The translations under genes and the position numbers were made by a program. Shown here in pieces: positions 12,336-56,388 of a stretch of DNA of 64,000 nucleotides. Numbering within the stretch: the stretch's first letter is position 1; every line of letters starts with the position of its first letter. The stretch is from positions 960,001 to 1,024,000 of the forward strand of contig OZ245002.1 in assembly GCA_965223415.1 (NCBI GenBank), read 5' to 3'. Source of the DNA: Myxococcota bacterium (GTDB lineage Bacteria; Myxococcota_A; UBA9160; UBA6930). The notes beneath the pieces are model-generated. The model was not told where the DNA came from and did not search any database. It worked only from the letters and a program-made list of their open reading frames with translations.

Positions 12336-12445
12336 CGTTCTGCCACGGTTCGCGATCGGGTTCGGGGCGTGAGGCCGCAGATCCCGCGCACGCGTGGGCC
12401 CGACGAGGGAGCGAGCCGGCGCGTCGATTGCAGCGGGATGGCCCC

Positions 12446-13840
12446 ATGAGCCACAGCGAGCCCGTGACGGCGCCGGAACGGCTGCACCTGGACCTCGACG
12501 ACGCCCACGTCCACATGCACGTGGCCGGCGCGTTCCTCTTCGAGCGCGGACCGTTGGCCCAGGGCTCCGGCGTGGACATCGACCGCATCCGCGATTTCGT
12601 CGAGGCCCGGCTCTACCGGGTGCCGCGCTGCCGCCAGCGCCTGTCTCGGGCACCGCTCGGGGACGAGCTGGCCTGGGTGGACGATGCGAGCTTCAACCTC
12701 CAGTACCACGTGCGGCACACCCACCTCCCGCATCCCGGCGACGAGCGGCAGCTGAAGCGGCTGTGCGGCCACATCGCATCCCAGCGCCTCGACCGGGAGA
12801 AGCCGCTCTGGGAGCTCCACGTCGTGGAAGGGCTGGAAGACGACCACTTCGCCCTCGTCGTCAAGGCCCACCAGTGCATCACGGGCGGCCTGTGGGGGAT
12901 CGGACTGATCGAGGCGCTCCTCTCCGAGAGCCCGGAGCCCGACGCCGACGAGCCCGGCCCCGTGTGGCTGCCGCGGCCGGCGCCCTCGGGCCAGGACCTG
13001 CTGCGGAGCGCCGTGGCCCGACGCCTCGAGGCGCCGTGGCAGCTCGGCCGCATCCTGCTCGACGCCGGCCGCGAGCCGGAGCGCATCTGGTCGGAGCTGA
13101 AGAGCGGCCTCGAGGGGTTCCGGGAGACGACGCCCGCCTCCGACTCGCCCTTCAACCAGCCCATCGGCCCCCACCGCCGCTTCGACTGGCTCGTCTCCGA
13201 CGCCGGCCGCGCCCGCGCCGTGGCGGACCGCTTCGGCAGCGGACTCGAGGCGGTGGTCCTCGCGACCCTGGCCGGCGCCATCGGGCGCTTCTTCGAGCAG
13301 CGTGGCATCCCGCGGGCCGATCAGCGCGACTTCCGCCTGCGCGCCGCGATGCCCGAGAAAGCGGGGGGCCTGCTCACCGGCGACACCGGCGGCGACACCC
13401 TCGCCTGGGCGGTGACCGCCCTGCCGATCGCCGAGGCCGACCCGCTGGCCCGGCTGGAGCAGGTGGCCGACGCCCTCGAGGCCTCGGCCCACGTGGGCTA
13501 CGAGCTCTTCTCGGCGGCCAGCGAGTGGCTGTGGCCGGGGCTCTACGGAGCGATGGCGCGACGCCAGCTCGCGAGCCGCGCGTCGAACCTGACCGTCGCG
13601 CTGCTGAACGGCCCGGAGACCGATCGCTACCTGCTGGGCGCCCGCCTCGGCGACGCCTTCCCCCTGCTTCCCCTCGTACCGGAGCAGGCCCTGCGCGTCG
13701 CGGCCTACGTCCGGGGCCCCCGGCTCCACTGGGGCTTCAACTCGGACTGGGACCTGCTCCCGGATCTGCACGACCTGGTACACGCCACCGACGCCTGCTT
13801 CCGCGAGCTGTGCGCCGCCGGCGACGCCCGCGCCGCCTGA
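12446..13840 (+). CDS. Wax ester synthase/DGAT-family protein with degenerate active site
   Basis: WVDDASFNLQYHVRH, LDREKPLWE, PFNQPIGPHRR; HHxxxDG replaced by HQCITGG. Confidence 0.88.
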   Translation: MSHSEPVTAPERLHLDLDDAHVHMHVAGAFLFERGPLAQGSGVDIDRIRDFVEARLYRVPRCRQRLSRAPLGDELAWVDDASFNLQYHVRHTHLPHPGDERQLKRLCGHIASQRLDREKPLWELHVVEGLEDDHFALVVKAHQCITGGLWGIGLIEALLSESPEPDADEPGPVWLPRPAPSGQDLLRSAVARRLEAPWQLGRILLDAGREPERIWSELKSGLEGFRETTPASDSPFNQPIGPHRRFDWLVSDAGRARAVADRFGSGLEAVVLATLAGAIGRFFEQRGIPRADQRDFRLRAAMPEKAGGLLTGDTGGDTLAWAVTALPIAEADPLARLEQVADALEASAHVGYELFSAASEWLWPGLYGAMARRQLASRASNLTVALLNGPETDRYLLGARLGDAFPLLPLVPEQALRVAAYVRGPRLHWGFNSDWDLLPDLHDLVHATDACFRELCAAGDARAA

Positions 13841-13850
13841 GGAACGATGG

Positions 13851-15278
13851 ATGGACCACTACCACTACGAGCGCCTGTCGGCCCAGGACAACGACTTCCT
13901 CGAGTGGGAGACGCCGAGCCTCACCATGCACGGCTCGGGCATCTCGGTCTTCGACGCCGGCCCGCTCACCACGGAGGACGGTGGCATCGACTTCGCCGCG
14001 ATCAAGCGGGGCTTCGCCGCGGTCCTCCACCACGTGCCGCGCTACCGGCAGAAGCTCGCCCGCCTTCCCGGCGACGACCGCCCCTACTGGGTGGACGACG
14101 CGCAGTTCAACATCGACTACCACATGCGCCACATCGCGCTTCCCCGCCCGGGCAGCGACGCCCAGCTGAAGCGCCTGGCCGCCGACATCATGGAGCGCCC
14201 CCTCGACCGGGGCCGCCCGCTGTGGGAGACCTGGGCGATCGAGGGCCTCTCGGGCGACCGCTTCGCGCTGATCTCCAAGACCCACCACTGCATGGTCGAC
14301 GGTGCGTCCGGCATGGGGCTCATGGAGCGCCTGTTCTCGATGAAGCCGGAGTACGAGCTCTCGGAGGCGCCGCGCTTCGTGCCGCGGCCCATGCCCTCGA
14401 GTATGGAGCTCTGGCGGGAAGGCTGGCGGCGGCGCCTCGACCTGCCCGGCCGCGCCCTGCGCGGGCTCCGCGAGTTCGTGGAGGAGAGCGACGACCTGGG
14501 CGACGAGATCCTGTCGCGGCTCAAGGCCGTGCGCGATCTCGCGAAGATGAAGCTCGTACCCGCCTCGGACACGCCGATCAACGGGCCGGTCGGCCCCCAC
14601 CGCATCTTCGACTGGCTCGAGCTCTCCCTGGCGGACTTCAAGGCCGTGCGCCGCGCACGCGACTGCTCGATCAACGACGTGGTGCTCACCACCGTCACGG
14701 GCGCCGTGCGCGAGCTGATGACCCTGCGGCAGGTGCGCCCGGAAAGCCTCGACTTCCGCGTGAGCGCGCCGGTGAACGTGCGTCCGAAGGGCGACGCGGA
14801 GAAGCTCGGCAACCACGTATCCTCCTGGATCGTTCCCCTTCCCCTGGACGAGGCCGAGCCCCTCGAGCAGCTGCGTCGCGTTCACGCCACCACCCAGGGG
14901 CTGAAGGACTCGCACCAGGCAGCGGGCGTCGAGATGATGACCGCTCTCCACGAGTGGATCCCCTTCGACATCCAGGGCGCCTCGACCGGCACCCAGAACA
15001 TGCTGGTCACCAACGTCCCCGGCCCGCCCTTCCCCCTCTACCTGCTGGGCGCGGAGATGTGCGGCCTCTACGCCCAGGCGCCCCTCATCGAGAACATCGG
15101 CCTGGCGGTGAGCGTGATCAGCTACAACGGCAGGCTCGGCTTCGGCTTCAACGCCGACTACGACCGGGTGCCGGACCTCGGCCAGTTCGCCCGGGCGATG
15201 CGGCGTTCCTTCGAGCGGCTCGCGAAGGCGGCGGGGACCGCCCCTGCCGAGCCCGCCCTCGTCGCCGCCGGTCGCTAG
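13851..15278 (+). CDS. Wax ester synthase/DGAT
   Basis: Intact THHCMVDG; LDRGRPLWE; SINDVVL; TNVPGP. Confidence 0.93.
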   Translation: MDHYHYERLSAQDNDFLEWETPSLTMHGSGISVFDAGPLTTEDGGIDFAAIKRGFAAVLHHVPRYRQKLARLPGDDRPYWVDDAQFNIDYHMRHIALPRPGSDAQLKRLAADIMERPLDRGRPLWETWAIEGLSGDRFALISKTHHCMVDGASGMGLMERLFSMKPEYELSEAPRFVPRPMPSSMELWREGWRRRLDLPGRALRGLREFVEESDDLGDEILSRLKAVRDLAKMKLVPASDTPINGPVGPHRIFDWLELSLADFKAVRRARDCSINDVVLTTVTGAVRELMTLRQVRPESLDFRVSAPVNVRPKGDAEKLGNHVSSWIVPLPLDEAEPLEQLRRVHATTQGLKDSHQAAGVEMMTALHEWIPFDIQGASTGTQNMLVTNVPGPPFPLYLLGAEMCGLYAQAPLIENIGLAVSVISYNGRLGFGFNADYDRVPDLGQFARAMRRSFERLAKAAGTAPAEPALVAAGR

Positions 15279-15642: not shown

Positions 15643-16854
15643 GTGTCCTGTTTCGGAAAAAAGTACGCAAAATAGTGCGAACTCCCAACGTGCAGGGGGC
15701 ATCTTACCGGCATCACGTTGGGGGGACGTATGGCGAATCGTGGCCGGCCCAAGACGCCGATTGTGCTGACGGATGCGGAGCGAGAAGAGCTCCAGACGCA
15801 CGCCAGAAGGCGGAAGAGCGCGCATCAGTTGGCCTACCGCTCGCGCATTGTATTGCTCGCAGAGCAGGGGCTGACGAATGGGGAAATCGCGGAACGCGTA
15901 GGCAAGCGACGAGAGACCGTCGGGATCTGGCGCAAGCGCTTCGTCGAAAAGCGGATCGCTGGGCTCTACGACGAGCCCAAGCCGGGAGCGCCCCGGACGG
16001 TGACCGACGAGCAGGTCGATGAGGTCGTGCGCTTGACGCTAGAGGAAACGCCCACGGGAGCGACGCACTGGTCCGTTCGCCTGATGGCGAAGCGGGTAGG
16101 CCTCCCGACGACGACGGTTCATCGCATCTGGCGAGCATTCAGCCTCCAGCCGCACCGAGTCGAGCGCTTCCGGCTCTCCAACGATCCCCATTTTGTGGAC
16201 AAGGTGGTGGATATCGTCGGCCTGTACATGTCTCCGCCGGCGAACGCGGTCGTCCTCTGCGTCGACGAGAAATCGCAGATCCAAGCGCTGGAACGGAACC
16301 AGCCTGTCTTGCCGATGCAACCGGGCCGGGCGGAGCAGCGCACACACGGATACCTACGCCATGGCACGACGACACTCTTTGCCGCACTCAACATCGCAAC
16401 GGGCGAAGTGATCGGATCCCTCCATCGCCGGCACCGCACGGAGGAGTTCCTGAAGTTCCTCAGGACGATCGACGACAACGTACCCGCCGAACTCGACATC
16501 CATCTCGTGCTCGACAACTACACCACGCACAAGACGAAGCGAACTCGGAGCTGGCTCGCGCGCCACCCTCGTTTCCACGTGCACTTCACCCCGACGTACA
16601 GCTCATGGCTGAATCAGGTCGAGCGGTTCTTTGCACTCATCACCGAGCGTTGCATCCGTCGCGGCGTGCATCGCAGCACGAGGGCGCTCGAGAACGACAT
16701 CCGGAGCTTCCTGAAGACGACGAACGACGATCCGAGACCCTTCGTCTGGACCAAGACCGCGGATCAGATCCTCGCGAGTGTGCGGCGCTACTGTGGTCGC
16801 GTCCTCGACGTCCACTCCGATTCTAATCGAGTGGTTTCTTCTGGAACAGGACAC
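15643..16854 (+). mobile_element. IS630-family insertion sequence
   Basis: Terminal IRs GTGTCCTGTTTCGGAAAAAA and (reverse complement) GTGTCCTGTTCCAGAAGAAA; TA duplication at 15641-2 and 16855-6 within CTAG; lower GC than flanks. Confidence 0.93.
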
Positions 16855-22085: not shown

Positions 22086-23327
22086 TCAGCCCGTCTCTAC
22101 CCGGGGCGGGAGCGCGGCGCGCTCCTCGAGGCAGCCGTAGGCGGTCGGCGTGAGCTTGATCAGGGTGTGGAGCGGCATCTCCAGGTGGGGCGTCTCTTCG
22201 ATGGGCAGCTGGCGGAAGTAGGCGACCATCGCCCGCAGCACGGCGCGATGGGCGATCACCAGCACCGGCGTGCGATAGCGCTCGAGCTCGATCAGGACGC
22301 GATCGATGCGGTGGATCACGTCCAGATAGGACTCACCGCGCGGATAGCGGTAGGCGAGCTTGTCCTTCTTGCGCGCGGCGAACTCGCCGGGCATCGAGCG
22401 TTCGATCTCGGTGTAGGTCATGCCGTCGCAGGCGCCGGCCTGGATCTCGTCGAGGGCCTTCCACGACCCCGCCTCCACGCCGAGGGGCGCGGCCGTCTGG
22501 AGCGTGCGGCGCAGCGTGCTGGTCCACACGTCCAGATCCCCCTCGGGCGGGAACACCTCGCGAACGTGGACCGCCAGGTTGGTGGCGTACTCCTCCCCGG
22601 CCGGAGAGAGGGAGGCGTCGCCGCCGATCCGCCCATCCAGGTTGTAGAGGCTCTGGCCGTGGCGGGTCAGCCAGACCGGGCGCCGGGTCACCTGAAGGTT
22701 CGAGAGGAAGAAGACGACCCGCCCGACGATGTACCCGTAGACCTGGTTGATCACCACCTGCGCCCCGCGATTGCGCAGCCGCAGCCAGGGGCCCTCGTCT
22801 TCCCCCAGGGTCTCGTAGACCCGCTCGTAGTGGGCGATGCGCCGGCGGAAATCCGCCAGGGCGTCGGCCTCGGGCACGCCGCGGTAATCCGGCGAGCGGA
22901 GCTTCGTCTCGCGCAGGTTCGCCTCGATGATGGCCGGATCGTCGTTCACGATCTCGACGAAGAGGAGCTCCACGTCCTCCGCGAGGGCGCGCTCGCGGAT
23001 CCACTGGCGGCGCTCGCGGGTGGAGTTCGTGGCGTCGTAGACGGCGATTCGCCCGGGCCCCCGCAGCCACGCACAGGCCTCGTCCAGGGCCTCGCGGGCC
23101 AGCTCCGCCCGCCGCAGGGAGGCCTCCCGGTTCGCGGGATCGAAGAACTCGTGGGACGGGCCGGTCCCGACGGTGGCCCGACGGTGCTCTCCCACGTTGA
23201 AGGCCAGGGTCGGATACCCGAGCCAGGAGAGGTAGCCGACGAGCTTCCGCGCGGTGAAGGTCTTGCCGCGGGCCGGCAGCCCCACCATGGCGATCAGGTG
23301 CTTTCGCCCGCGCCGGGGCCGGCTCAT
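22086..23327 (-). CDS. Bifunctional 6-phosphofructo-2-kinase/fructose-2,6-bisphosphatase (eukaryotic PFKFB-type)
   Basis: Kinase: MVGLPARGKT, FNVGEHRR, AVYDATNSTRERR, SPDY. Phosphatase: RHGQS..N..GRIGGD, WTSTLRRTLQTA, WKALDEI, YRYPRGESY, HRAVLR, PLHT..KLTP.AYGC. RBS GGTGGAG before ATG 23327. Confidence 0.93.
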   Translation of the reverse strand: MSRPRRGRKHLIAMVGLPARGKTFTARKLVGYLSWLGYPTLAFNVGEHRRATVGTGPSHEFFDPANREASLRRAELAREALDEACAWLRGPGRIAVYDATNSTRERRQWIRERALAEDVELLFVEIVNDDPAIIEANLRETKLRSPDYRGVPEADALADFRRRIAHYERVYETLGEDEGPWLRLRNRGAQVVINQVYGYIVGRVVFFLSNLQVTRRPVWLTRHGQSLYNLDGRIGGDASLSPAGEEYATNLAVHVREVFPPEGDLDVWTSTLRRTLQTAAPLGVEAGSWKALDEIQAGACDGMTYTEIERSMPGEFAARKKDKLAYRYPRGESYLDVIHRIDRVLIELERYRTPVLVIAHRAVLRAMVAYFRQLPIEETPHLEMPLHTLIKLTPTAYGCLEERAALPPRVETG

Positions 23328-23376: not shown

Positions 23377-24618
23377 ATGGCGACGATCGGAATCCTGGTG
23401 GGCGGAGGCCCGGCCCCGGGCATCAACGGCGTGATCGGCGCGGCGGCCATCTATGCCCGCCGTCACGGCGCGCGAGTGAAGGGCCTGCTCGACGGCTTCC
23501 GCTGGCTGATGGAAGGCGATGCGAGCAAGGCGACGGACCTGCACATCGGCACCGTCTCCCGCATCCACCTGCTGGGCGGCTCGGTCCTGCAGACCTCGCG
23601 GGCGAATCCGACCAAGAACCCGGAGCACCTGCGGAAGGTGGTCTCCACCCTTCGCGAGCTCGAGATCGATCACCTGGTAACGATCGGCGGGGACGACACC
23701 TGCTACTCGGCGCTGCGCGTCGCCGAGGAGGCCGGTGACGCCATCCGGGTGGCCCACGTTCCGAAGACGATCGACAACGACCTCCCGTTGCCCGAGGGGA
23801 TCCCCACCTTCGGCTTCGAGACGGCGCGCGAGACCGGCGCCACCATCCTGAGCCATCTGATGGAGGACGCGCGCACCACCAGCCGCTGGTACCTCGCGGT
23901 GATGATGGGCCGCTCCGCGGGGCATCTGGCCCTGGGGGCGGCGAAGGCCGCCGGCGCCACCCTGGCCCTCGTCGGAGAGGAGTTCCCGGAGGGACCGATC
24001 CGGCTCGCCGAGGTCGTGCGGCGCATCGAGGCGTCCATCGTCAAGCGGATCGCCTTCCATCGGCCCTACGGCGTCGCCGTGGTGTCCGAAGGCATCGGCG
24101 AGCGGCTCCACCCGGAGGATCTCGAGCGGCTCCCGGAGCTCCCGCGGGACGATCACGGCCACGTGCGGCTGGCCGAGCTACCCCTGGGGCGCCTCCTGGT
24201 CGACGGTGTGAAGCAGGATCTCGGCGAGCTCGGGCTCTCGATGACGATGGTCGCCAAGGACGTGGGCTACGAGCTTCGCTGCGTGGCTCCGAACGCCTTC
24301 GACGCCGAGTACACCCGGGACCTGGGCGCCGGCGCCGTGCGCTGCCTGCTCGACGGCACCCACAAGGTGATGATCACCCGCGAGGGCAACGGCATCCATC
24401 CGGTGCCGCTCACCGACATCCTCGATCGCCAGACCGGCCGCACCCGCGTGCGCCTGCTCGACGTGACCAGCCCGTCCTACAGCATGGGGCGGGCGCTACA
24501 GGTTCGCCTCGAGCAGGAGGACCTCGAGGATCCCCGGGCGGTGCGGCTCCTGGAAGAGGCCACCGGCCGATCGATCGGCCAGCTCCAGGAGCGATGGGCG
24601 AGCGTGCTCGGAGGCTAG
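23377..24618 (+). CDS. pfp: Pyrophosphate-dependent 6-phosphofructokinase
   Basis: GILVGGGPAPGIN, IGGDDT (Asp indicates PPi type), PKTIDND, MGRSAG, GYELRC; RBS GGAGGT. Confidence 0.92.
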   Translation: MATIGILVGGGPAPGINGVIGAAAIYARRHGARVKGLLDGFRWLMEGDASKATDLHIGTVSRIHLLGGSVLQTSRANPTKNPEHLRKVVSTLRELEIDHLVTIGGDDTCYSALRVAEEAGDAIRVAHVPKTIDNDLPLPEGIPTFGFETARETGATILSHLMEDARTTSRWYLAVMMGRSAGHLALGAAKAAGATLALVGEEFPEGPIRLAEVVRRIEASIVKRIAFHRPYGVAVVSEGIGERLHPEDLERLPELPRDDHGHVRLAELPLGRLLVDGVKQDLGELGLSMTMVAKDVGYELRCVAPNAFDAEYTRDLGAGAVRCLLDGTHKVMITREGNGIHPVPLTDILDRQTGRTRVRLLDVTSPSYSMGRALQVRLEQEDLEDPRAVRLLEEATGRSIGQLQERWASVLGG

Positions 24619-24717
24619 GAGCCGACGCCCGCGGGGCACGTGCGCATTTCGCACGGCTCCACCGACGGTGACGGACGAAAACCACCGGGGCGGTGGCGGC
24701 CGATGCGCACCCAGGTA

Positions 24718-24788
24718 GTGACGAACGACACGAACGTCGCGGTGACGAACGACACCAACGAAGCGTCCGTCACTGTGACGAGAGTTAC
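24718..24788. promoter_or_regulatory. Iterated GTGAC-N4-G(A/T)(C/T)AC sites upstream of the mamK-like operon
   Basis: GTGACGAACGACAC(G/C)AACG repeated at 24718 and 24742 (24-bp period), plus GTGACGAGAGTTAC at 24775. Confidence 0.5.
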
Positions 24789-24967
24789 TGCGAGCGCCGT
24801 CGGTGAACGTGCGCGCTTCTCGTGTTCCACTCACTTCGACCGGCGGTTCAATCGCGCGTCCATTTTTTTCGTTCGGGACGCGTTTCTTTTTGACCGCGAT
24901 CACGCGTCGACTCTATGATGCGCCTCGTTCGAACGGCCCAAACAGCAGTTGCCGCGGACGCTCCCCC

Positions 24968-25810
24968 ATGCGCGAACCCACGCCCACCGACGGTGGACAG
25001 AGCTTCAAGATCGACGTCGCGCGCATCATCGATGCGAGCTCGCGTCGCGTTGCGGCGGACGAGCTGGGTGGCCAGGTCGTCCGGGTGGTGGACGCCAGTC
25101 GCATCGACGAAGCGATCGCCCGGGCCGTCGATGACGCCTTGCGCGCCCAGGAGACCAAGCTCGGCCGCTCCCTTCGGCGCGAGGTGGGGTTGGAGGCGAG
25201 CCGGCGCTTCGTCGACCTGATGGGCCGGCACCAACGGGCGGAAGAGGAGCGCCGCGAGGCCCATCGAGCCCGCCGGAAGCTGGAGAAGGAGCTGGACGCG
25301 CTGCGCGAGCAGCTCGCCGCGGAGAGAGCCCGGCTCGAGGGCGAGCACACAAAGGCCGCCGAGCGCGCCTTCTCCCTCTCCGACGACGGGCTTCGGGAGC
25401 TCGAGGCGCACCTGCGCCGGATCGTTTGGGGGTTCGTGAGTGACCAAAGGCGGCGGCGAGCGTTGAGCCCCGGAGGGGCGGACCTCCCGGAGCTCGCTGA
25501 GCTCGAGCGGGTGCTCGGACGCGTGCTCCATCGAGTGCTGGTCCGTGAGCGACTCGCCGCCGCCAGGCCCCTGGATCCCCCGAGCTTGCGTGAGCTCGAG
25601 AACCTGACCCACCGGCTCTTCGACCTGCACGAGCGCCTGGGCGTGCAGGAGCGGGAGATCGCGGAGCTCCGTCGGCTCCGCTCGGTGCCGCCCCGCAGCC
25701 CGCGCGGCGCTTCGACGCCGCGCCCCGGGGGCAACGAGAAGCAGGCCGTCCTCGCGGTGATCTTCAACGAGAACCTGAAGCTCCGCGCCCAGTTCCACCA
25801 AGCCAGCTGA
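24968..25810 (+). CDS. Coiled-coil protein, possibly related to deltaproteobacterial Mad proteins
   Basis: N-terminal IDVARIIDASSRRV..DEL...VRVVDASRIDEAIARAV, heptad-rich middle, C-terminal KQAVLAVIFNENLKL; directly upstream of the mamK-like gene. Confidence 0.65.
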   Translation: MREPTPTDGGQSFKIDVARIIDASSRRVAADELGGQVVRVVDASRIDEAIARAVDDALRAQETKLGRSLRREVGLEASRRFVDLMGRHQRAEEERREAHRARRKLEKELDALREQLAAERARLEGEHTKAAERAFSLSDDGLRELEAHLRRIVWGFVSDQRRRRALSPGGADLPELAELERVLGRVLHRVLVRERLAAARPLDPPSLRELENLTHRLFDLHERLGVQEREIAELRRLRSVPPRSPRGASTPRPGGNEKQAVLAVIFNENLKLRAQFHQAS

Positions 25811-25834
25811 TCCACAGGATCGAAAGGGAGTCCC

Positions 25835-26920
25835 TTGACCGAAACGAACCCCGGGCCCGAGGAGGCCCGTCCGCCCGCCGACATCCTCTATCTCGGAATC
25901 GACTTCGGAACCTCGCGAACGTCGATTGCGGCCAGCAACGGCGTCCGGGACACGGTGCTCTCCTACGTCGGCTACCCGAAGGACCACGTGGCCCGAAAGC
26001 TGCTCCAGAAGGACGCGCTCTTCGGGGAGGAGGCCCTGGAGAAGCAGCTGGCCCTCGACTTCTACCGGCCCCTCGCAGGAGGGCAGATCAAGCACTCCGA
26101 GGACGGCGAGCCAATGGACCCGAAGGTCTTCGAGGCCAACACCCGGGCGGCGGGCGAGCTGCTCCGGCACGCCATCAGCCTCGCGGGGGCGGAGGAGGGC
26201 GCAGTGGTCTACGGCGTGCTCGGATCGCCCGCCCAGGCCAGCATCAAGAACAAGAAGGCCCTGCTGGACGCCTGCGCCGGCGCCCTCGACTCGGTGATGC
26301 TCTGCTCGGAGCCCTTCGCCGTCGCCTACGGCATGGATCGCCTGGACGATGTGCTGGTCATCGACATCGGAGCCGGCACGACGGACCTGTGCCGCATGCA
26401 CGGCACGATGCCCGACGAGGCGGACCAGCTCACGATCCCCTTCGCCGGAGACTGGATCGATCGGCAGCTCGCCGAGCTCTTCGCCCGCAAGTGCGCGGGT
26501 GCCGACTTCACGCTCAACATGGTGAAGCAGGCGAAGGAGAAGTTCGCCTTCGTCACCGAGCCCCAGGCCCGGGCGATCGTCGAGTTTCCGGTGAAGGGGA
26601 AGCCGACCCAGTTCGACGTCACCGACGAGATCCGCGAGGGCTGTGGGCGCATCGTGCCCCACATCGTGAAGGGGCTCCAGGAGCTGATCGCCTCCTTCCA
26701 TCCGGAGTTCCAGGCGCGGCTGCGCCAGAACGTGCTGCTCGCTGGGGGAGGCGGGCAGATCATCGGCCTCGACATCGCCATCGAGAGCTACATGCGGGAG
26801 CACCTGGGAGGCGGAAACGTCACCCGGAGCCAGGAGCCCATGTACGGCGGGGCCCACGGTGCCCTGAAGATCGCCTACGACATGCCGGCCGAGTATTGGG
26901 AGCAGCTGAGCACCGGCTAG
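25835..26920 (+). CDS. mamK: MamK-like bacterial actin
   Basis: GIDFGTS, SYVGYPKD, YRPL, SEPFAVAYG, IDIGAGTTDLCRMHG, AGDWID, FHPEFQ..LRQNVLLAGGG, GALKIAYDMPAEYW; TTG start with RBS AAGGGAG. Confidence 0.88.
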   Translation: MTETNPGPEEARPPADILYLGIDFGTSRTSIAASNGVRDTVLSYVGYPKDHVARKLLQKDALFGEEALEKQLALDFYRPLAGGQIKHSEDGEPMDPKVFEANTRAAGELLRHAISLAGAEEGAVVYGVLGSPAQASIKNKKALLDACAGALDSVMLCSEPFAVAYGMDRLDDVLVIDIGAGTTDLCRMHGTMPDEADQLTIPFAGDWIDRQLAELFARKCAGADFTLNMVKQAKEKFAFVTEPQARAIVEFPVKGKPTQFDVTDEIREGCGRIVPHIVKGLQELIASFHPEFQARLRQNVLLAGGGGQIIGLDIAIESYMREHLGGGNVTRSQEPMYGGAHGALKIAYDMPAEYWEQLSTG

Positions 26921-26962
26921 CCTTACACCGCCGGTGCCGTCGAGCCGGGGCGGGGGCCGAGG

Positions 26963-28345
26963 GTGAAGTCGATCGAGGACGTGTTTCCGGCGCGCTCCGG
27001 GGAGGCGGGCGAGTACGTCGCCCGTCCGGCCGTGGAGCGCGCCCGAAGCGAGCTGCTGCAGCTGCTGCGAGGCGGCGAGACCTGCGTCCGGCTCGCCGGG
27101 CCGGCAGGCCTGGGCAAGACCCTCCTGCTCCGCCTCGTCGCCCAGGATCTGGGGCCCGACTGGCGCTGCGTCCACCTGTCGAACCCGCGGATCGACGCGG
27201 ACGAGCTGTGGAGACGCATCGCCCGGCGGCTGGCCTCCCGGGGCGCGGCGCCGCGGGTCGTGGCCCGGGTCGCAGCGCAGGCCTACGAGCGCCAGGGCGC
27301 GCTCCTGGTGATCGTCGACGACGCCCACCACCAGCCCGCGCCGACCCGGCGCGCGCTCGCCAGGGCTTGCGCCCATCACGCCGGGCTGCGCGTGTTGCTC
27401 TGCGAGACCGTTCCGGCCGGGGAATCGGACCAGGCGGGCCCCGGGGAGGTGTGGCTGCGCGAGCCCATGACGGCGGCGGAGGCGCGGGCGTACCTGCACG
27501 AGCGGCTCGATCGGGGGCGCGTCCCGGCGGAGCTGCGCGCGCGCTTCGACGGGCCGACGATCGACCGGCTGCAGCGCGAGGCGAAGGGAAGCGTCGCGAC
27601 CTTCCACGCCCTGGCCGGAGCGGTCCTGCGCGAGGAAGACGCCGCCGAGCGGGCAGCGAGCGAGGCCGTGACGCAGGCTCCGGCCCCCCGGGAGCCCGAG
27701 CCCCTGGTCGTGCTGGTTTCGGCCCCGGAGCCGCCGCCCCGGGAGGAACCCCCGAGGCTCCGCAGCGGGAGGCGTCCGCAGACGGTCCGCGAGGCGATCA
27801 AGGCCACGTCTCCGCGCCGGCGACCGCCGGCAGAGCTCCCGTCCGCTCGTCCTCCGGCGTCGACCCGGCGCCAGCCCGCAGTGCGGACCGCACCTGCGCC
27901 CGTCCCCGCGGACGACGCCCCCCCCCGGCGGGCGCTCCCCCGCGCGCGCTCGGGCTGGCTCGCCGGAAGTCTGGTGGTGGGGCTGCTGCTCGGAGTGGCC
28001 GGCACCCGGCTGATGGCGAGCGACCCCGACCCGGCCTCCCCCGTTCCGGAGCCGCCTCCCGTCGCGAGCGCTCCCCCGCCCGCGGTGCCGCTCGGGCGGA
28101 TCAACGTGAACGCGGTTCCCTGGGCGCGGATCGAGATCGACGGCGAGCCGGCGGGCGAGACGCCGCTCGGCGAGCACGAGCTGCCCCGCGGGCCCCACCG
28201 ACTGGTCGCGCGCTTCCCGGACGGGAGCGTGGTCGAGAGGACGGTGGAGCTCGGCAAGGAGGAGGTCTTCCTGCTGCTCCGCCCCGAGGACACCTCGTCC
28301 CCCGCTACCCCGACGAGCCCACTCGCGGAAGCACCCGCTCCGTGA
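26963..28345 (+). CDS. ExeA/GspA-like AAA ATPase + Pro-rich linker + TM helix + PEGA-like domain
   Basis: Walker A GPAGLGKT, Walker B LLVIVDDAH, TM WLAGSLVVGLLLGVAG, C-terminal NAVPWARIEIDGEPAGETPL...GPHRL. Confidence 0.75.
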   Translation: MKSIEDVFPARSGEAGEYVARPAVERARSELLQLLRGGETCVRLAGPAGLGKTLLLRLVAQDLGPDWRCVHLSNPRIDADELWRRIARRLASRGAAPRVVARVAAQAYERQGALLVIVDDAHHQPAPTRRALARACAHHAGLRVLLCETVPAGESDQAGPGEVWLREPMTAAEARAYLHERLDRGRVPAELRARFDGPTIDRLQREAKGSVATFHALAGAVLREEDAAERAASEAVTQAPAPREPEPLVVLVSAPEPPPREEPPRLRSGRRPQTVREAIKATSPRRRPPAELPSARPPASTRRQPAVRTAPAPVPADDAPPRRALPRARSGWLAGSLVVGLLLGVAGTRLMASDPDPASPVPEPPPVASAPPPAVPLGRINVNAVPWARIEIDGEPAGETPLGEHELPRGPHRLVARFPDGSVVERTVELGKEEVFLLLRPEDTSSPATPTSPLAEAPAP

Positions 28346-37113: not shown

Positions 37114-38253
37114 TCAGTTCGGGAGCTGGGGGTCCTGCTGGAGGAGGGCGGCCTGGGCCATGAGCTCGCGGAACTTGCTGCGCTCGATGCGTTCCTCGAA
37201 GCCCGCGCGGCGGAGGCGGTGGAAGTACTCCTCCACCTGCTTGATCTGGAGGAGGCCGACGATCTCGACGCCCTTCTGGATCTGCTCGGGCTTCGTGCCC
37301 TTGCCCGCCAGGACGATCATGGCCTCGAAGAGGGAAGAGTCGAACTGGCTGAGGGTGAGGTTCTCGGCCTCATCGAGAGCCAGGTGGAGCTGCTCGCGGC
37401 GCTCGGGGCTGTGGTCGACGATCCACTTCAGGTGCTGCAGGCCGTAGGAGACGTGCCGCGCCTCGTCCTGCATGACGAGCTGGAACATCTTCTTGTCCAC
37501 CGGCGTCGGCGAGATGAACTCGCTGAAGCGGAAGAGGGTGAGGATGTTTCCCTCGGCCAGCAGGTGCATGAAGGCGCTGGCCTCGCTGTAGGTGTCGCCA
37601 TCCAGGATGGCCTTGAGGGAGTGCTCGACCTGGGGCAGGGCCTCCATCAGGCCCACACCGCCGGCCAGCGCGCGCTTGCGGAAGACCTCCGCATGGCGCG
37701 CCTCGTCGATGGCCTGGGTGGCAATGAAGTGCTTCACCTCGTGGAACTGGTTGTTCATGCGCCACAGCCACTTGGCCGGCAGGTCCGTGGCGATCATCTC
37801 CACCTCGGTGAAGAAGGTGCAGAGCTGGGCGAAGGCGATCTCCACCTCCTGGGAGCGCTCGCAGTCGGGCAACTCGTGCCAGGGCACGTCGGTGGTGGCG
37901 TCCCACTGGCGACTCATCGCCTCTTCCGTGAAGGAGGCCACCTTGTAGGCCCAGACGTCGCTCTTGCGGTTCAGCTCGGGGCCGAGATCGGCCTGGCCCG
38001 CCACGTCGTAGGCGGCGCCCCGCGGCGCGGCACCCCGGGGCCCGCGCGGAATCTCCGGAAGATCGTCGAAGCCGTAGCTGCCCCGGTTCAGATCCAGGTA
38101 GGTAAGCCCACGGCGATGGTTCTCCGCGTTCACCTCGACCTGCTCGGTGCCGGCCTGCATCCAGGCGAGGTCGAGGTTGCCCTTGCGGATGTCCTTCATG
38201 CGCTGGACGAAGTCGCCGTTCTCGACGTAGTCGGTGGGGCCGTAGTAGCTCAT
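37114..38253 (-). CDS. Ferritin-like di-iron protein (ligands intact)
   Basis: FTEVE...DEARH...LAEG...DEARH pattern of a carboxylate di-iron four-helix bundle. Confidence 0.88.
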   Translation of the reverse strand: MSYYGPTDYVENGDFVQRMKDIRKGNLDLAWMQAGTEQVEVNAENHRRGLTYLDLNRGSYGFDDLPEIPRGPRGAAPRGAAYDVAGQADLGPELNRKSDVWAYKVASFTEEAMSRQWDATTDVPWHELPDCERSQEVEIAFAQLCTFFTEVEMIATDLPAKWLWRMNNQFHEVKHFIATQAIDEARHAEVFRKRALAGGVGLMEALPQVEHSLKAILDGDTYSEASAFMHLLAEGNILTLFRFSEFISPTPVDKKMFQLVMQDEARHVSYGLQHLKWIVDHSPERREQLHLALDEAENLTLSQFDSSLFEAMIVLAGKGTKPEQIQKGVEIVGLLQIKQVEEYFHRLRRAGFEERIERSKFRELMAQAALLQQDPQLPN

Positions 38254-38262
38254 GAATGGTCC

Positions 38263-39345
38263 TCAGTCCTGGAGCAGGGCCAGGAATTGCGAGATGGGGC
38301 TGCGCCCGCGGCGATCGCCGAGGCCGGCGGCCTCGCAGCGGCGGGCGTACTCCTCGAAGCAGCGGGCGTAGAGGTCGGCCACCGGCCCGAGCCCGTCGCT
38401 CAGCACGATCAGCGGCTCGATCACTTCGCGAGCGCCGAGGGCGCCGACCATTCCGTTCTCCATCAGGTCGAGGTGGCCGTTCAGCGCATCCCGCTCGGCA
38501 GGGCGCGAGGCCACCAACGAGCGAACGTGGTCCACGCCGTAGGCGATGAAGCGCGTCGCGTCCTGCATGAGACGCGCGCCGAGGAAGGTGTCCGCCTCGT
38601 TGCGCGACGCCCACTCCCAGTGGCGGCCGAGGCCCTGCACGAAGGAGAAGAGCATCAGGTTCATCGAGGCCGAGGCGCAGGGGTAGGTGCCGGACTCGAT
38701 CACCATCTTGAGCAGGTCGCCCAGCTCGGCGGAATCGCGGCCCAGGTGCCCGGCACCGTAGAGGGCGCGCTTGCGAAAGGCCTCGGCGATGCGCGCGGCG
38801 TCGATCATCTGCAGGCACATCAGGTACTTGATCTCGTGGAACTCCTGGTTCATCAGGAACTCCCAACGCGCCGGGAGGTCGCAGGTGACCAGACCGATCG
38901 AGACCAGGTCGGTGGCGAGCTGGCGCAGCGCCGCGTCCTGCTCCGCGCCGAGCTCGGCCCCGTCGAGGGCCTCCCAGGGCACGTCGCGGGCCGGCCGCCA
39001 GTGCCGGGTCTTGCCCTCCTCGTAGATCCGGGTCGCCGCGTCCGCCCACAGCTCGCTCTTGCGGTTCAGGCGGTAGCCCAGCGAGGGAAGGTTCGCGGGC
39101 AGAATGGCGCCGCGGGGTGCCATCGAGAAGTTGTGGCGGACGATTTCCGGCAGGTGCTCGGGGCCGTAGCTGCCCTTGTTGATGTCGTCGAGGGTGAGGC
39201 CGCGCTTGGGCTCGGCGGCCCGCGCCTCGATCCGCTCGCGGATGCTGTCCATCCAGTCGAGCTTGAGATCGCCGGAGAGGGTGCGCCCCAGCATCTCCAT
39301 CAGCTCGGGATCCAGAGAGAAGTCCTTCGGTGCGATGTAGGCCAT
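38263..39345 (-). CDS. Ferritin-like paralogue lacking metal ligands
   Basis: Colinear with 37114-38253 (LNRKS..WA, DLPA.W...MN..FHE.K, FRKRAL) but DAARI and DATRF replace both DEARH motifs; ATG at 39345. Confidence 0.8.
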   Translation of the reverse strand: MAYIAPKDFSLDPELMEMLGRTLSGDLKLDWMDSIRERIEARAAEPKRGLTLDDINKGSYGPEHLPEIVRHNFSMAPRGAILPANLPSLGYRLNRKSELWADAATRIYEEGKTRHWRPARDVPWEALDGAELGAEQDAALRQLATDLVSIGLVTCDLPARWEFLMNQEFHEIKYLMCLQMIDAARIAEAFRKRALYGAGHLGRDSAELGDLLKMVIESGTYPCASASMNLMLFSFVQGLGRHWEWASRNEADTFLGARLMQDATRFIAYGVDHVRSLVASRPAERDALNGHLDLMENGMVGALGAREVIEPLIVLSDGLGPVADLYARCFEEYARRCEAAGLGDRRGRSPISQFLALLQD

Positions 39346-39353
39346 GACGAGCC

Positions 39354-39776
39354 TCAGCCGACGGCCACGTCGAGGTGACGCGCCTGGTCGAAGAACTCCT
39401 GGATCGTGGCCATGAAGCGATAGAAGCAGTCGTGGCCCTCGGCGTCCTCGTACTCGACGCTGATCACGTCGCCCACGTGGGAGAGCGTGTTCAGGGTGTG
39501 GGCGGCGTCGGCGCCGCCGTTGTCCAGGATCGAACGGACCATCTCCTTCCAGGTATCGACCGGCGCGGCAAGCACGAAGTCGAGCGCCGCGGCGTCGCCG
39601 CCCTCCGCCACCTCCACGCACTCGTAGACCTCGAAGCGGATGCGCGTGAGCTCGTCGCCGATGCGCACGCCGAAGGTCGTGTCGCAGGTGCCGAGCTTCT
39701 CGAAGGTGACCGGATCCTCGGTCGTCCGCTTCTGCAGGGCTTCGAAGAACTCGAGAGAGGGGAAGGGAATGGCCAC
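39354..39776 (-). CDS. Small acidic SCP2-like hypothetical protein
   Basis: GTG start after GAGGAGG; PFPSLEFFEALQ...DFVLAAPVDTWKEM...FYRFMATIQEFFD. Confidence 0.7.
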   Translation of the reverse strand: MAIPFPSLEFFEALQKRTTEDPVTFEKLGTCDTTFGVRIGDELTRIRFEVYECVEVAEGGDAAALDFVLAAPVDTWKEMVRSILDNGGADAAHTLNTLSHVGDVISVEYEDAEGHDCFYRFMATIQEFFDQARHLDVAVG

Positions 39777-42737: not shown

Positions 42738-44150
42738 ATGCCCGTCAGCTACGAAGAGTGGATGAGCGACGGCGACGCGCTCATGTGGAACATCGAGCGC
42801 GATCCCGTGCTGCGCTCGACGGTCACCAGCGTCTGGATCCTCGACCGCATGCCGGACCTCGAGCGCTTCGAGGCCACCTTCGATCGGGCCCTCCACAAGA
42901 TCCCCCGGCTGCGCCAGCGGGTGGTCGCCGACGGCCTGGGGGTCGCGACGCCGCGCTGGGAGGACGACCCGCTCTTCGACCGCAGCTTCCACGTGCGGCG
43001 CCTCCGCGCGCCCGGGGAGGGGGACCTCCGCGATCTGCTCGACCTGGCGGCCCCGCTGGCGGGCCAGGCCTTCGACAAGGACCGGCCGCTCTGGGAGTTC
43101 CACCTGGTCGACGGCCTGGAGAGCGGCCGCGCCGGCGTGATCCTGCGCCTGCACCATGCGATCTCCGACGGCGTCGGCATGGTGCGCATGACCAACACCC
43201 TGATCGAGCGCTCCCGCGAACCGAAGCCCGGCCGCGAGCTGCCCCGGACCGTCGCCGACGACCGGGAGCCCGCGCCCTGCGCGCGCTCGGGCGAGATGGA
43301 GCACCTGGCCTCGGCGGTGCAGCAGCGGGTCATGAACGCCACCGAGCGCGGTCGCCGCGTGGGAAGCGCCCTCGGCCGCGGGCTGCTGGAAGCCGTGAGG
43401 GATCCGGCCGGCGCCGCCCAGAAGCTGGCGGACACGGCGGGCTCGGTGGGCCGGCTGGTGAAGCCCGCCAACGAGCCCCTCTCACCGATCTGGAGGGAAC
43501 GCTCCTTCTCGGTGCACCTGGACGCGCTGCTCGTCTCCTTCGACGCCCTTCGGGCCGCCGCCAAGACCGTGGACGGCACCCTGAACGACGCCTTCGTCGC
43601 GGCCGTCGCCGGGGGCCTGCGCCTCTATCACGAGGGGCACGGAAGGTCGGCGAAAGAGCTGCGCATGAACATGCCGATCAACATCCGCGACGGCGAGGAG
43701 CGGGACCGGGCGGGCAACCAGTTCGTCCCGGCCCGCTTCGCGGTGCCGGTCGGCATCGAGGATCCGAAGCGGCGCATGAGGGCCATCCGCGAGCTCGTCC
43801 GCGCCCAGCGCTCGGAACCCGCCCTGCCCCTGATGGACGAGGTCTCGGGCGCGATCAACCGGCTGGGCGTTGTGGCGGCCACCTCCGTCGTGAGCGGGAT
43901 GATGAAGTCGGTGGACTTCGTGACCAGCAACGTGCCCGGGCCGCCCTTCCCGGTCTACATGGGCGGGGCGCGGATCGAGCAGATGTTCCCCTTCGGTCCG
44001 CTGGCAGGCGCCGCTGTGAACGTGACCCTCTTCAGCTACGACGGCCAGCTCCAGCTCGGCATCAACTCGGACCGCCTCGCCGTGCCCGACCCGGACCGCC
44101 TGCTGGACTGCATCGAGGCCGGGATCGACGAAGTCACCTCCGTCTCCTGA
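42738..44150 (+). CDS. Wax ester synthase/DGAT
   Basis: HHAISDG, FDKDRPLWE, TLNDAF, SNVPGP. Confidence 0.93.
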   Translation: MPVSYEEWMSDGDALMWNIERDPVLRSTVTSVWILDRMPDLERFEATFDRALHKIPRLRQRVVADGLGVATPRWEDDPLFDRSFHVRRLRAPGEGDLRDLLDLAAPLAGQAFDKDRPLWEFHLVDGLESGRAGVILRLHHAISDGVGMVRMTNTLIERSREPKPGRELPRTVADDREPAPCARSGEMEHLASAVQQRVMNATERGRRVGSALGRGLLEAVRDPAGAAQKLADTAGSVGRLVKPANEPLSPIWRERSFSVHLDALLVSFDALRAAAKTVDGTLNDAFVAAVAGGLRLYHEGHGRSAKELRMNMPINIRDGEERDRAGNQFVPARFAVPVGIEDPKRRMRAIRELVRAQRSEPALPLMDEVSGAINRLGVVAATSVVSGMMKSVDFVTSNVPGPPFPVYMGGARIEQMFPFGPLAGAAVNVTLFSYDGQLQLGINSDRLAVPDPDRLLDCIEAGIDEVTSVS

Positions 44151-54966: not shown

Positions 54967-56388
54967 ATGCAACAGCTGTCCGGAATGGACGCCGCGTTCC
55001 TCTACTTCGAGACCGCCAACGCGCCGACCCACATCGGCTCCTTCGCGATCTACGACCAGTCCACGGCGCCGGGCGGCAGGGTCACCTTCAAGGGCATCCT
55101 CGCCAATGTCGAGCGCCGCCTGCACCTGGCGCGCTGCTTCCGCCAGAAGCTCGTCTACGCGCCGCTGAACCTCGACCACCCCTACTGGCTCGAGGATCCG
55201 GAGTTCGACCTCGAGTTCCACGTGCGCCACATCGCCCTCCCCCATCCCGGGGATTGGCGACAGCTTTGCATCCAGGTCGCGCGCATCCACGCGCGGCCTC
55301 TCGACCTCTCCCGGCCCCTGTGGGAGATGTACGTGATCGAGGGCCTCGACAACGTCGAGGGGGTTCCCGCGGGCAGCTTCGCCGTGATGACGAAGATCCA
55401 CCACGCGGCCATCGACGGCGTGTCGGGCGCCGAGCTCGCCGGGGCCATCCACGATACGGCCCCCGACGCGGAGCCCGCGCCCCCGGACGAGGAGTGGCGC
55501 GCCGAGCGCGAGCCCAGCCTGCTGGAGATGGCGACGCGCACCACCCTGAACAACATGCGAAGCCCCTTCCGCTTCGCGCGCGTGCTGGGCCAGACCGCAC
55601 CGGGTCTGATGAACTTCTTCCGCAGCACGCCGGAAGAGGAGTTGGACGAGGTCAAGGAGGTGCCGCGCACGCGCTTCAACGGCACGATCTCGTCCCACCG
55701 CGTGATCGAAGGTCGGGCCTTCTCGCTCCAGGACATCCGCGAGATCCGCAAGCGAGTCCCGGGCTCGACGGTGAACGACGTGATCCTCACCGTGTGCGCC
55801 GGCGGCCTGCGCAAGTACCTCGAGTTCCACCGCGAGCTGCCTCGCGAGAGCCTGGTGGCGATGGCGCCGATCTCGGTGCGCAGCGAGGAAGAGGCGGGCA
55901 CGGCGGGCAACGTCATCTCGGCCATGTCCGTCACGCTCTACACGGACGAGGCCGACCCCCTCGAGCGGCTGGGCAAGGTGCACCGCGGAACCCGCGGCTC
56001 GAAGAAGACCGCCGAGGCCGTCGGCGCCCGGACGATGACCGACATCAGCCAGTTCATGCCGGGCACCCTGGCGGGCCTCGCCGCCCGCCTCTACACCCGG
56101 CTCGGCCTCGCCAACAACGTGAAACCGTTCCTGAACACGGTGATCACGAACGTCCCGGGCCCGCAGATCCCCCTCTACTTCACCGGCGCGAAGATGTGCG
56201 GCCTGTACGGCCTCGGCCCGATCATGGATGGCATGGGCATCATCCATCCCGTGTTCAGCTATTCGGGACGTATCAGCATCTCGGTGACGGCGTGCCGGGA
56301 GATGCTGCCGGATCCGGGCTTCTATGCGGATTGCCTGGAGGCGGCCTTCGACGAGCTCCTGGTGGAGGCGCGCAAGCCGGCGCCCTAG
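54967..56388 (+). CDS. Wax ester synthase/DGAT
   Basis: HHAAIDG, LDLSRPLWE, TVNDVIL, TNVPGP. Confidence 0.94.
   Translation: MQQLSGMDAAFLYFETANAPTHIGSFAIYDQSTAPGGRVTFKGILANVERRLHLARCFRQKLVYAPLNLDHPYWLEDPEFDLEFHVRHIALPHPGDWRQLCIQVARIHARPLDLSRPLWEMYVIEGLDNVEGVPAGSFAVMTKIHHAAIDGVSGAELAGAIHDTAPDAEPAPPDEEWRAEREPSLLEMATRTTLNNMRSPFRFARVLGQTAPGLMNFFRSTPEEELDEVKEVPRTRFNGTISSHRVIEGRAFSLQDIREIRKRVPGSTVNDVILTVCAGGLRKYLEFHRELPRESLVAMAPISVRSEEEAGTAGNVISAMSVTLYTDEADPLERLGKVHRGTRGSKKTAEAVGARTMTDISQFMPGTLAGLAARLYTRLGLANNVKPFLNTVITNVPGPQIPLYFTGAKMCGLYGLGPIMDGMGIIHPVFSYSGRISISVTACREMLPDPGFYADCLEAAFDELLVEARKPAP

Follow-up and report, generated by a model that had tools for sequence, protein, structure and literature searches.

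MamK is usually taken as a marker of magnetotactic bacteria, in which MamK-type filaments (MamK, Mad28) are bound or regulated, and linked to their cargo, by MamJ, McaA and McaB and by the coiled-coil proteins Mad20, Mad23, Mad25 and Mad26 (PMC12748827). Related actins are also described in bacteria that are not magnetotactic. Saltatorellin, from Saltatorellus ferox, is a MamK-like actin that forms filaments in E. coli and M. gryphiswaldense (bioRxiv 10.1101/817700), and BeeR, a three-stranded tubular actin of Verrucomicrobiota, is MamK-related and found in non-magnetotactic bacteria of the Planctomycetota-Verrucomicrobiota-Chlamydiota (PVC) group (PMC11929497, PDB 8R2N). The binding of an adaptor is described for the actin ParM: the last 17 residues of ParR occupy a site between subdomains IA and IIA of ParM, and the ParR-parC complex binds one filament end only (PMC3794156). 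Here we analyse a MamK-family actin gene and its neighbours in a stretch of 64,000 nucleotides from a Myxococcota bacterium (contig OZ245002.1, positions 960,001 to 1,024,000), hereafter called the window.

The actin gene of the window is preceded by a gene for a helical protein, here called the partner, whose family is conserved directly upstream of MamK-family actins. We think it probable, with some reserve, that the two genes form a filament-plus-adaptor module that is widespread in non-magnetotactic Planctomycetota and of which the window holds a divergent copy. Most of the MamK family as defined by NCBI lies outside magnetotactic bacteria, and its main non-magnetic clade very probably has a dedicated partner of its own, for which neither Pfam nor NCBIfam holds a model.

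A MamK-family actin and its conserved upstream neighbour

The middle gene of three co-oriented genes (Table 1) encodes a MamK-family actin in the broad NCBIfam sense. Its product scores 407.2 bits against the NCBIfam MamK model NF040964 (cutoff 400), over profile positions 1-331 of 335, and close relatives of this actin reach 413-431 bits on the same model. It remains below the NCBIfam cutoffs for BeeR (NF053558, 182.3 bits versus 530), for the two MreB models (42.2 and 29.4 bits versus 293 and 366) and for ParM (14 bits versus 417). Among sequences of the PDB, the best match is MamK (5jyg, 242 bits), followed by BeeR (115 bits) and MreB (37 bits). The AlphaFold2 (AF2) model of the protein, with a predicted local distance difference test score (pLDDT) of 88.9, gave the same order by Foldseek: the MamK filament 5LJV came first (E 6e-37, template modelling scores 0.82/0.91), then BeeR (2e-31) and MreB (3e-20). 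The initial annotation of this DNA, made from the sequence alone, had called the protein MamK-like rather than MreB-like on the strength of the motifs VGYPKD, SEPFAVAYG, DLCRMHG, FHPEFQ and DMPAEYW. All five motifs are present in the translation, and the NCBIfam, PDB and Foldseek scores support the call. Grouping with MreB, set beforehand as the observation that would speak against it, was not observed in the profile and structure scores, so the MamK-like assignment stands.

The ATPase residues of the protein are intact. D23, E159, D177 and G304-G306 are invariant or nearly so in its clade, and in the alignment with the PDB sequence E159 and D177 correspond to E143 and D161 of MamK, which we take to be catalytic residues.

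This actin adds one more sequence to a family that is already known and annotated. A word-indexed search, in which 8000 candidates were scored, retrieved at least 3045 homologues at E ≤ 0.001. The closest are 86, 80, 73 and 71% identical and are followed by a dense block at about 55-64%, with many Planctomycetota; among the matches listed, 5 of 120 bear the NCBI name "MamK family actin-like protein". An exhaustive search of 50%-identity representatives gave 865 clusters at E ≤ 0.001, of which 165 reach E ≤ 1e-30, and relatives of the actin were found in 488 stretches of species-representative genomes. With so many homologues and genomic relatives, mainly from Planctomycetota, and with a name that NCBI already uses, the actin is no "orphan", as it had been described at the outset. 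For the comparison of gene neighbourhoods we used the best 80 of the 488 stretches (actin identity 54-63%), a set that lies outside the window's own genome and the 86%-identical relative and is hereafter called the related loci. According to their titles, 74 of them come from Planctomycetota or subgroups of this phylum and six from a "bacterium" only; they are metagenome-assembled genomes (MAGs) that are not labelled magnetotactic.

To place the actin, we aligned the actin domains of 66 full-length representatives with the window protein and seven close relatives (74 rows), and we built three trees: a quick tree of the 74 rows, a quick tree after removal of 10 long-branch rows and a careful maximum-likelihood (ML) tree of the remaining 64 rows. 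The clade of canonical MamK was labelled by means of two representatives, P0174 and P0226, whose matches to the PDB MamK reach 463 and 416 bits. The careful ML tree joins the window actin and eight relatives, all retrieved as its closest hits by two protein searches, in one clade (support 96/95), the canonical MamK representatives are found in a separate clade of 12 rows (100/98), and the BeeR-like rows lie outside both (100/100). All three trees concur. Because the backbone between the clades is poorly supported, we claim no sister relationship. With the two canonical representatives the window actin shares 39% and 33% identity, and it matches the PDB MamK at 242 bits versus their 463 and 416; together with its position outside the canonical clade, this led us to reject canonical MamK identity. 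It is included in a large MamK-family clade of non-magnetotactic bacteria, mainly Planctomycetota.

We then considered the protein encoded directly upstream. Its AF2 model is almost wholly helical, with one 100-residue helix (residues 67-166) and a mean pLDDT of 77.4. It has no Pfam or NCBIfam family match, Foldseek of the model against the PDB returned 0 matches at E ≤ 0.001, and the best score in a search of the ESM Atlas, 0.86, is under the useful range. A direct phmmer search with this protein matched the open reading frames (ORFs) immediately 5' of the actin in only 15 of the 80 related loci. Iterated, the profile converges on 75 ORFs, distributed over 72 of the 80 loci. In 67 loci the gap between partner and actin runs from -152 to +166 nt, with actin ORF boundaries that are crude. 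Four of the eight loci without a partner match are cut by a contig end, and the other four give weak matches, mainly to the C-terminal helix. Conversely, a profile made without the window sequence finds the window partner with 48.5 bits (E 1.5e-16), the match spanning residues 31-277 of 280. In the nearest relative, the partner is 60% identical and stands on a contig of the same length (25,843) as that of the 86%-identical actin, apparently the same contig.

The conserved part of the family is C-terminal. It consists of LERRI.KL...TE.EL, then D.G.(A/S)S(I/V)YR.VQGL, and then a helix of the form K(K/R)..L...IF.ANL.L. Residues 258-272 of the window partner read KQAVLAVIFNENLKL, which fits the family ending K..L...IF..NL.L, and its K258, F266 and N269 are 96-100% conserved in the family. 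This helix has a mean hydrophobic moment of 0.45 and a roughly neutral charge; it might target membranes, but we judged protein binding more likely.

A GGDEF-type domain, with matches to PDB profiles, takes up the N-terminal third of 19 of the 55 aligned members, and GGDEF is the only model that NCBIfam scans of the family returned, in some of these long forms. The window partner is a short form devoid of this domain, in which the N-terminal part is only a short helical region. In our own reading of the alignment, the GGDEF signature of the long forms (for example L016:4920-5969, L036:788-1876 and L044:4913-5941) is replaced by ..DDR.. or ..GDR.., and an RxxD is often kept a few residues before it; this RxxD may be the remnant of an inhibitory site for cyclic di-GMP (c-di-GMP). 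Three loci carry two partner-family genes each: in L059 they stand in tandem 5' of the actin, and L064 and L075 have their second copy about 5 kb downstream.

The helical protein had initially been proposed as the adaptor of the filament. Given a family that stands 5' of the actin in 72 of the 80 related loci, it is very probably a dedicated partner of the actin. Beyond the actin and the partner, no family recurs in more than 12 of the 80 loci, in a reduced BLAST set that was contaminated by antisense shadow ORFs. The genes downstream of the actin are heterogeneous in these loci, and their flanks are not cell-wall or division genes. We found no description of the partner family in the literature on MamK-like actins, in a search that covered abstracts and parts of main texts in open access.

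Predicted docking of the partner on the actin

A complex of the actin with partner residues 196-280 was predicted, each protein being given its own alignment. The prediction reaches an ipSAE of 0.72, compared with 0.00 for the best of three controls. Of 157 solved complexes, 116 attain this mark, as do 2 of 215 mismatched pairs, counts that are only a rough guide because our own alignments were used. In the predicted interface, the partner helix 257-279 faces actin residues 137-144, 155-157, 165, 170-171, 190-192 and 346-358. On the actin side, 13 of the 20 residues in contact show a conservation of at least 90% within the clade, compared with 140 of 361 overall (Fisher p 0.014). We infer that the docking site would be the IA/IIA cleft of the actin.

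We propose that the core of the system would be a two-gene cytoskeletal module, composed of an actin-like ATPase and the helical partner encoded directly upstream. The MamK-family actin presumably polymerises with ATP, and the partner would probably be a dimeric coiled coil, through its long helix. Its conserved amphipathic C-terminal helix would insert into a groove of the actin, putatively the hydrophobic IA/IIA cleft. In actin-like filaments, this cleft is the contact site of the next subunit. Since the ParR peptide and the next subunit both use it, the partner would act on filament ends or on monomers, as an adaptor or as a regulator of assembly, and it may couple the filament to whatever its N-terminal part holds, which in many Planctomycetota is a degenerate GGDEF domain. 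The third gene of the window could tie the actin system to the envelope, at most as a lineage-specific addition.

Several points weigh against this filament-plus-adaptor reading. The match of 48.5 bits between the window partner and the profile of its family carries a high compositional bias (31.4), and the window partner is divergent, being 12-29% identical to other family members. It also lacks the near-invariant D.G.(A/S)S(I/V)YR.VQGL, through a 6-residue deletion and substitutions; the partner of the nearest relative is likewise devoid of the YR.VQGL motif but keeps the last helix. As regards the docking, the agreement of contacts between complex runs is at least 43%, and the pLDDT of the partner is only 56-58. 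On the partner side the enrichment of conserved residues at the interface is not significant (3 of 16 versus 8 of 85, p 0.17). The assignment to the IA/IIA cleft was made from the order of secondary structures and general knowledge of the fold, not by inspection in three dimensions. Finally, similar complexes have been solved (ParM with the ParR peptide, 4A62, and actin with WH2), so the high docking score may reflect likeness to these rather than binding.

Alternative explanations and the surroundings of the pair

The window has a G+C content of about 71% and therefore contains many long spurious ORFs, from which coding genes were picked out by codon-position G+C (GC3 periodicity). The three genes each display the GC3 periodicity of real genes. 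Their positions, and the gaps of 24 nt (25811-25834) between the first two and of 42 nt (26921-26962) between the last two, agree with those initially given. An intergenic region of 349 nt separates the trio from the upstream gene for a pyrophosphate (PPi)-dependent phosphofructokinase. The promoter-like site in it matches 10 of 12 consensus positions; one such site was seen, and 50 shuffles gave an expectation of 0.0. On the + strand, nothing resembling a terminator was detected between 24400 and 28700, and hence none within the three-gene unit.

Table 1. Features of the three-gene unit, numbered from the first nucleotide of the window
Feature	Position	Strand	Remarks
Repeat cluster	24668..24774	.	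Within the 349-nt intergenic region; exact copies of GTGACGAACGACAC at 24718 and 24742
Sigma-70-like promoter TTGACC-18-TATGAT	24890..24919	+	49 nt 5' of the partner ATG
Gene 1, partner protein, 280 aa, almost all helical	24968..25810	+	Divergent short-form member of its family
Partner C-terminal helix, residues 255-279, ...KQAVLAVIFNENLKLRAQ...	25730..25804	+	Predicted actin-docking segment
Shine-Dalgarno-like AAGGGAG	25824..25830	+	Ends 4 nt 5' of the actin TTG start; read directly
Gene 2, MamK-family actin-like ATPase, 361 aa	25835..26920	+	Profile, PDB, AF2/Foldseek, tree; nucleotide-binding residues intact
Gene 3, bitopic AAA_22 P-loop ATPase with Pro/Arg-rich linker, transmembrane segment 333-351 and C-terminal PEGA-like domain	26963..28345	+	Pfam, hydrophobicity

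According to the initial annotation, all three genes would form one machine, composed of the filament, the adaptor and a membrane anchor, which would position a cargo such as lipid bodies or vesicles. Gene 3 would be this anchor, driven by ATP and set in the membrane or envelope. The 42-nt gap, the common orientation, the lack of a + strand terminator and the single promoter-like site fit one transcript, and to judge from these signals the three genes are probably co-transcribed here. The topology of gene 3 is also that expected of an anchor, with a cytoplasmic P-loop, one transmembrane segment and a PEGA-like outer domain. Its description as an ExeA-like ATPase with a transmembrane segment and PEGA was right as to the AAA_22 domain (36 bits, cutoff 27; Walker A GPAGLGKT at residue 46) and the single transmembrane segment; the PEGA match stays below its cutoff (18.3 versus 20.8), and the likeness to ExeA holds at the superfamily level only. 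Gene 3 has 16 homologues in 5.8 billion proteins, all with one predicted transmembrane segment and a common C-terminal motif, which in the window reads INVNAVPWARIEIDGEPAGETPL (INA.PWA.I..DG...G.TPL) and by eye aligns with 16 of 16. AAA_22 is present in 15 of them and PEGA at E ≤ 0.01 in seven, two of which are above the cutoff. The best homologue is 51% identical over 58% of the query, and one is labelled ExeA by the Joint Genome Institute.

The comparison with other genomes argues against this single machine. No homologue of gene 3 was found by phmmer in any of the 80 related loci, which speaks against its membership of the system, and none of the 69 downstream ORFs that were scanned there has AAA_22 or PEGA. 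None of the 16 homologues was found on a contig of the length that carries the actin and partner of the nearest relative, and the best of them lies on a contig of another length, a weak indication, as contig ends may separate neighbours. The sole tie of gene 3 to the actin pair is thus its adjacency in the window; being absent from the 80 loci and not found on the contig of the nearest relative, it is an unproven member, and we hold its belonging to the actin-partner system for doubtful. The role of membrane anchor that had been attributed to it finds no support in conservation. As to the cargo, the same 64 kb contain four paralogues of wax ester synthase/diacylglycerol acyltransferase (WS/DGAT), at 12428-13825, 13851-15227, 42738-44144 and 54985-56385, and their presence suggests that the organism stores neutral lipids. 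They lie 10-30 kb from the actin operon and we found nothing that links them to it; beyond them, there is no evidence for lipid bodies or vesicles as cargo. For all these reasons, we consider a single three-gene machine unlikely. Gene 3 and a convergent ORF for a luciferase-like monooxygenase overlap at their ends by about 41 nt (28305-28345), and no terminator-like site was seen between the two on either strand.

The actin-partner pair could also be a cytoskeleton for cell shape, budding or division, as suggested for saltatorellin. Its clade comes mostly from Planctomycetota (74 of the 80 best loci by title), which lack FtsZ according to a review (PMC11032199), saltatorellin has been proposed to drive shape change (bioRxiv 10.1101/817700), and the GGDEF-type domain of 19 of 55 partners suggests a signalling input that is typical of life-style switches. 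However, the flanking genes of the related loci are variable and are not those of cell wall or division, and saltatorellin is likened to our clade by description. We regard such a function, too, as unlikely. It concerns the cargo or purpose of the pair and is compatible with the docking mechanism proposed above.

A bolder picture, to which we give little credence, would be that of an undescribed but widespread cytomotive machine of the FtsZ-less Planctomycetota. A dimeric adaptor would ride on filament ends or cap them via its ParR-like helix, the long forms, with their degenerate GGDEF domain and an RxxD that is often kept, would couple growth of the filament to remodelling of the membrane or cell body under control by c-di-GMP, and the lineage of the window would hold a stripped-down copy joined to an AAA-PEGA protein that spans the envelope.

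ParR, too, docks through its C-terminus, as is predicted here for the last helix of the partner, and a DNA segregation cassette resembling ParMRC was considered, with the partner as centromere-binding adaptor and the repeats upstream of it as a parC-like centromere. These repeats form a cluster just 5' of the promoter. Two exact copies of GTGACGAACGACAC are spaced by 24 nt, a degenerate third copy lies at 24668 and an inverted copy at 24764-24774; with up to three mismatches, the motif occurs 18 times in the window versus 6.5 expected, and its sole two exact copies are in this cluster. For the GTGACGAACG-type repeats, eight repeated 9-mers were counted, a number reached in 0 of 300 shuffles. 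In spite of this significance in the window, only 2 of the 57 related loci compared show a similar enrichment 5' of the partner gene. The repeats are therefore not a conserved feature of the partner-actin family, and we rejected them as parC-like iterons. Because of this rarity, and because a DNA-binding domain is not recognisable in the partner (neither Pfam nor NCBIfam gives a match, and AF2 models the N-terminus as a low-confidence helix), they are more likely a local operator than a centromere. Three related loci have a gene for a serine recombinase (Resolvase plus Recombinase) directly 3' of the actin (L020:7028-7909, L023:1574-2461 and L070:1605-2543), which would suit a segregation cassette; these three are among the loci without a strong partner match, L023 and L070 being cut by a contig end and L020 giving a weak match. 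On the other hand, the gene order is opposite to that of parM-parR, the actin misses the ParM model by a wide margin, as reported above, and the contexts of the related loci are chromosomal and variable. A segregation cassette is, in our opinion, very unlikely.

Finally, the operon had been seen as a possible displaced piece of a magnetosome cluster. The initial statement that magnetosome and mreC/mreD genes are missing from the 64-kb window is confirmed: in Pfam (E ≤ 1e-5) and NCBIfam (E ≤ 1e-25) scans, thresholds under which small Mam proteins could slip, none of the 49 other proteins of the window matched a magnetosome, MreC or MreD family, and we rejected membership in a magnetosome gene cluster with mamA/B/E/I/M/O/P/Q nearby. 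That the locus is the remnant or satellite of such a cluster, in an organism magnetotactic now or formerly whose main cluster stands elsewhere in the 5.8-Mb contig, is hardly credible, although the actin passes the NCBIfam MamK model and although, outside the magnetosome island, M. magneticum carries a second mamK-like gene (PMC2818848), because the actin falls in the non-canonical clade (96/95) and is only 33-39% identical to canonical representatives, because its conserved neighbour is a non-magnetosome partner, found in 72 of 80 loci from MAGs that are not labelled magnetotactic, and because no mam gene is found within the 64 kb. The window thus gives no ground for assuming magnetotaxis or the loss of a magnetosome island.

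Elsewhere in the window, a gene for a bifunctional 6-phosphofructo-2-kinase/histidine-phosphatase (22110-23303, - strand) is divergent from that of the PPi-dependent phosphofructokinase (23392-24591, + strand), whose product scores 538 bits against NF041103 (cutoff 550). To our knowledge, such a divergent regulatory pairing is uncommon in bacteria. The window also contains two transposases, of the IS630 family (15913-16815) and the IS1380 family (56542-57771), and a minus-strand trio (37117-39755; 380, 364 and 132 aa) with a strong coding signal and no Pfam or NCBIfam match.

Comparison with known systems

ExeA, of type II secretion, has the AAA_22 P-loop domain in common with gene 3. It is a bitopic protein with one transmembrane segment and an extracytoplasmic C-terminal domain, which is peptidoglycan-binding. 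The outer domain of gene 3 is PEGA-like instead, and there are no secretion genes nearby in the window.

Canonical MamK (5JYG/5LJV) belongs to the same NCBIfam family as the window actin and is its best match in sequence and in structure. The window actin differs from it by its identity of 33-39%, by its position in a separate, well-supported clade, by the absence of a magnetosome cluster from the 64-kb window and by another, dedicated upstream partner. Two other architectures were noticed among the MamK-like proteins of the tree, none of them in the window. Fourteen actin domains within the range P0142-P0165 form a clade of their own (100/99) and bear N-terminal extensions of about 190-900 residues in which E, K, S and P abound, with a common start ..KKDRFREWTKSLGES.. 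and, ahead of the actin domain, a basic motif ..IKSRFSLRK..; no Pfam domain was found in these extensions. We considered the long ones (400-900 residues) as possible fused partners and rejected this idea, as they match neither the partner profile nor any Pfam domain. In P0202 (768 aa), a full FtsZ (TIGR00065, 351 bits) is fused to a MamK-family actin domain (446 bits), and this protein groups with canonical MamK.

Saltatorellin is similar to the window actin in that it is a MamK-like actin of a non-magnetotactic, Planctomycetota-related lineage (Saltatorellota). Its C-terminus, ...YWEQLK in our own reading of the published reverse primer, resembles the ...AEYWEKLK of the clade and the ...AEYWEQLSTG of the window; the likeness is one of description and C-terminus only, and the YW.QL position is also found in canonical MamK. 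The words coiled, operon, upstream, neighbo(u)r and GGDEF are absent from the text of the Saltatorellota preprint, which therefore does not describe the partner. BeeR comes second among the structural matches of the window actin, which falls short of the BeeR model by 182 versus 530 bits, and the BeeR-like rows are an outgroup in the tree. Moreover, BeeR has a disordered N-terminal extension of 30-50 residues, whereas the window actin has about 15 low-confidence residues before its first strand.

The proteins MamJ, McaA and McaB and the Mad proteins, compared with the partner by description, are likewise helical or coiled-coil, and they are specific to magnetosome clusters. As regards the mode of action, ParM-ParR (4A62) could be a parallel: the partner helix may work alike, since in the model it contacts a region that we infer to be equivalent. 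The pair is nevertheless no member of the ParM-ParR family: the two systems are unrelated in sequence, the partner is devoid of a DNA-binding domain, its gene precedes that of the actin instead of following it, and centromere-like repeats are not conserved. A conserved actin-adaptor pair with a specific docking prediction offers an entry point to the function of these filaments, above all in Planctomycetota, where little is understood of how cells divide and change shape. Set against the known systems, the actin itself belongs to a family already named, and the part that looks new is its conserved partner, with a predicted docking that resembles that of ParR on ParM.

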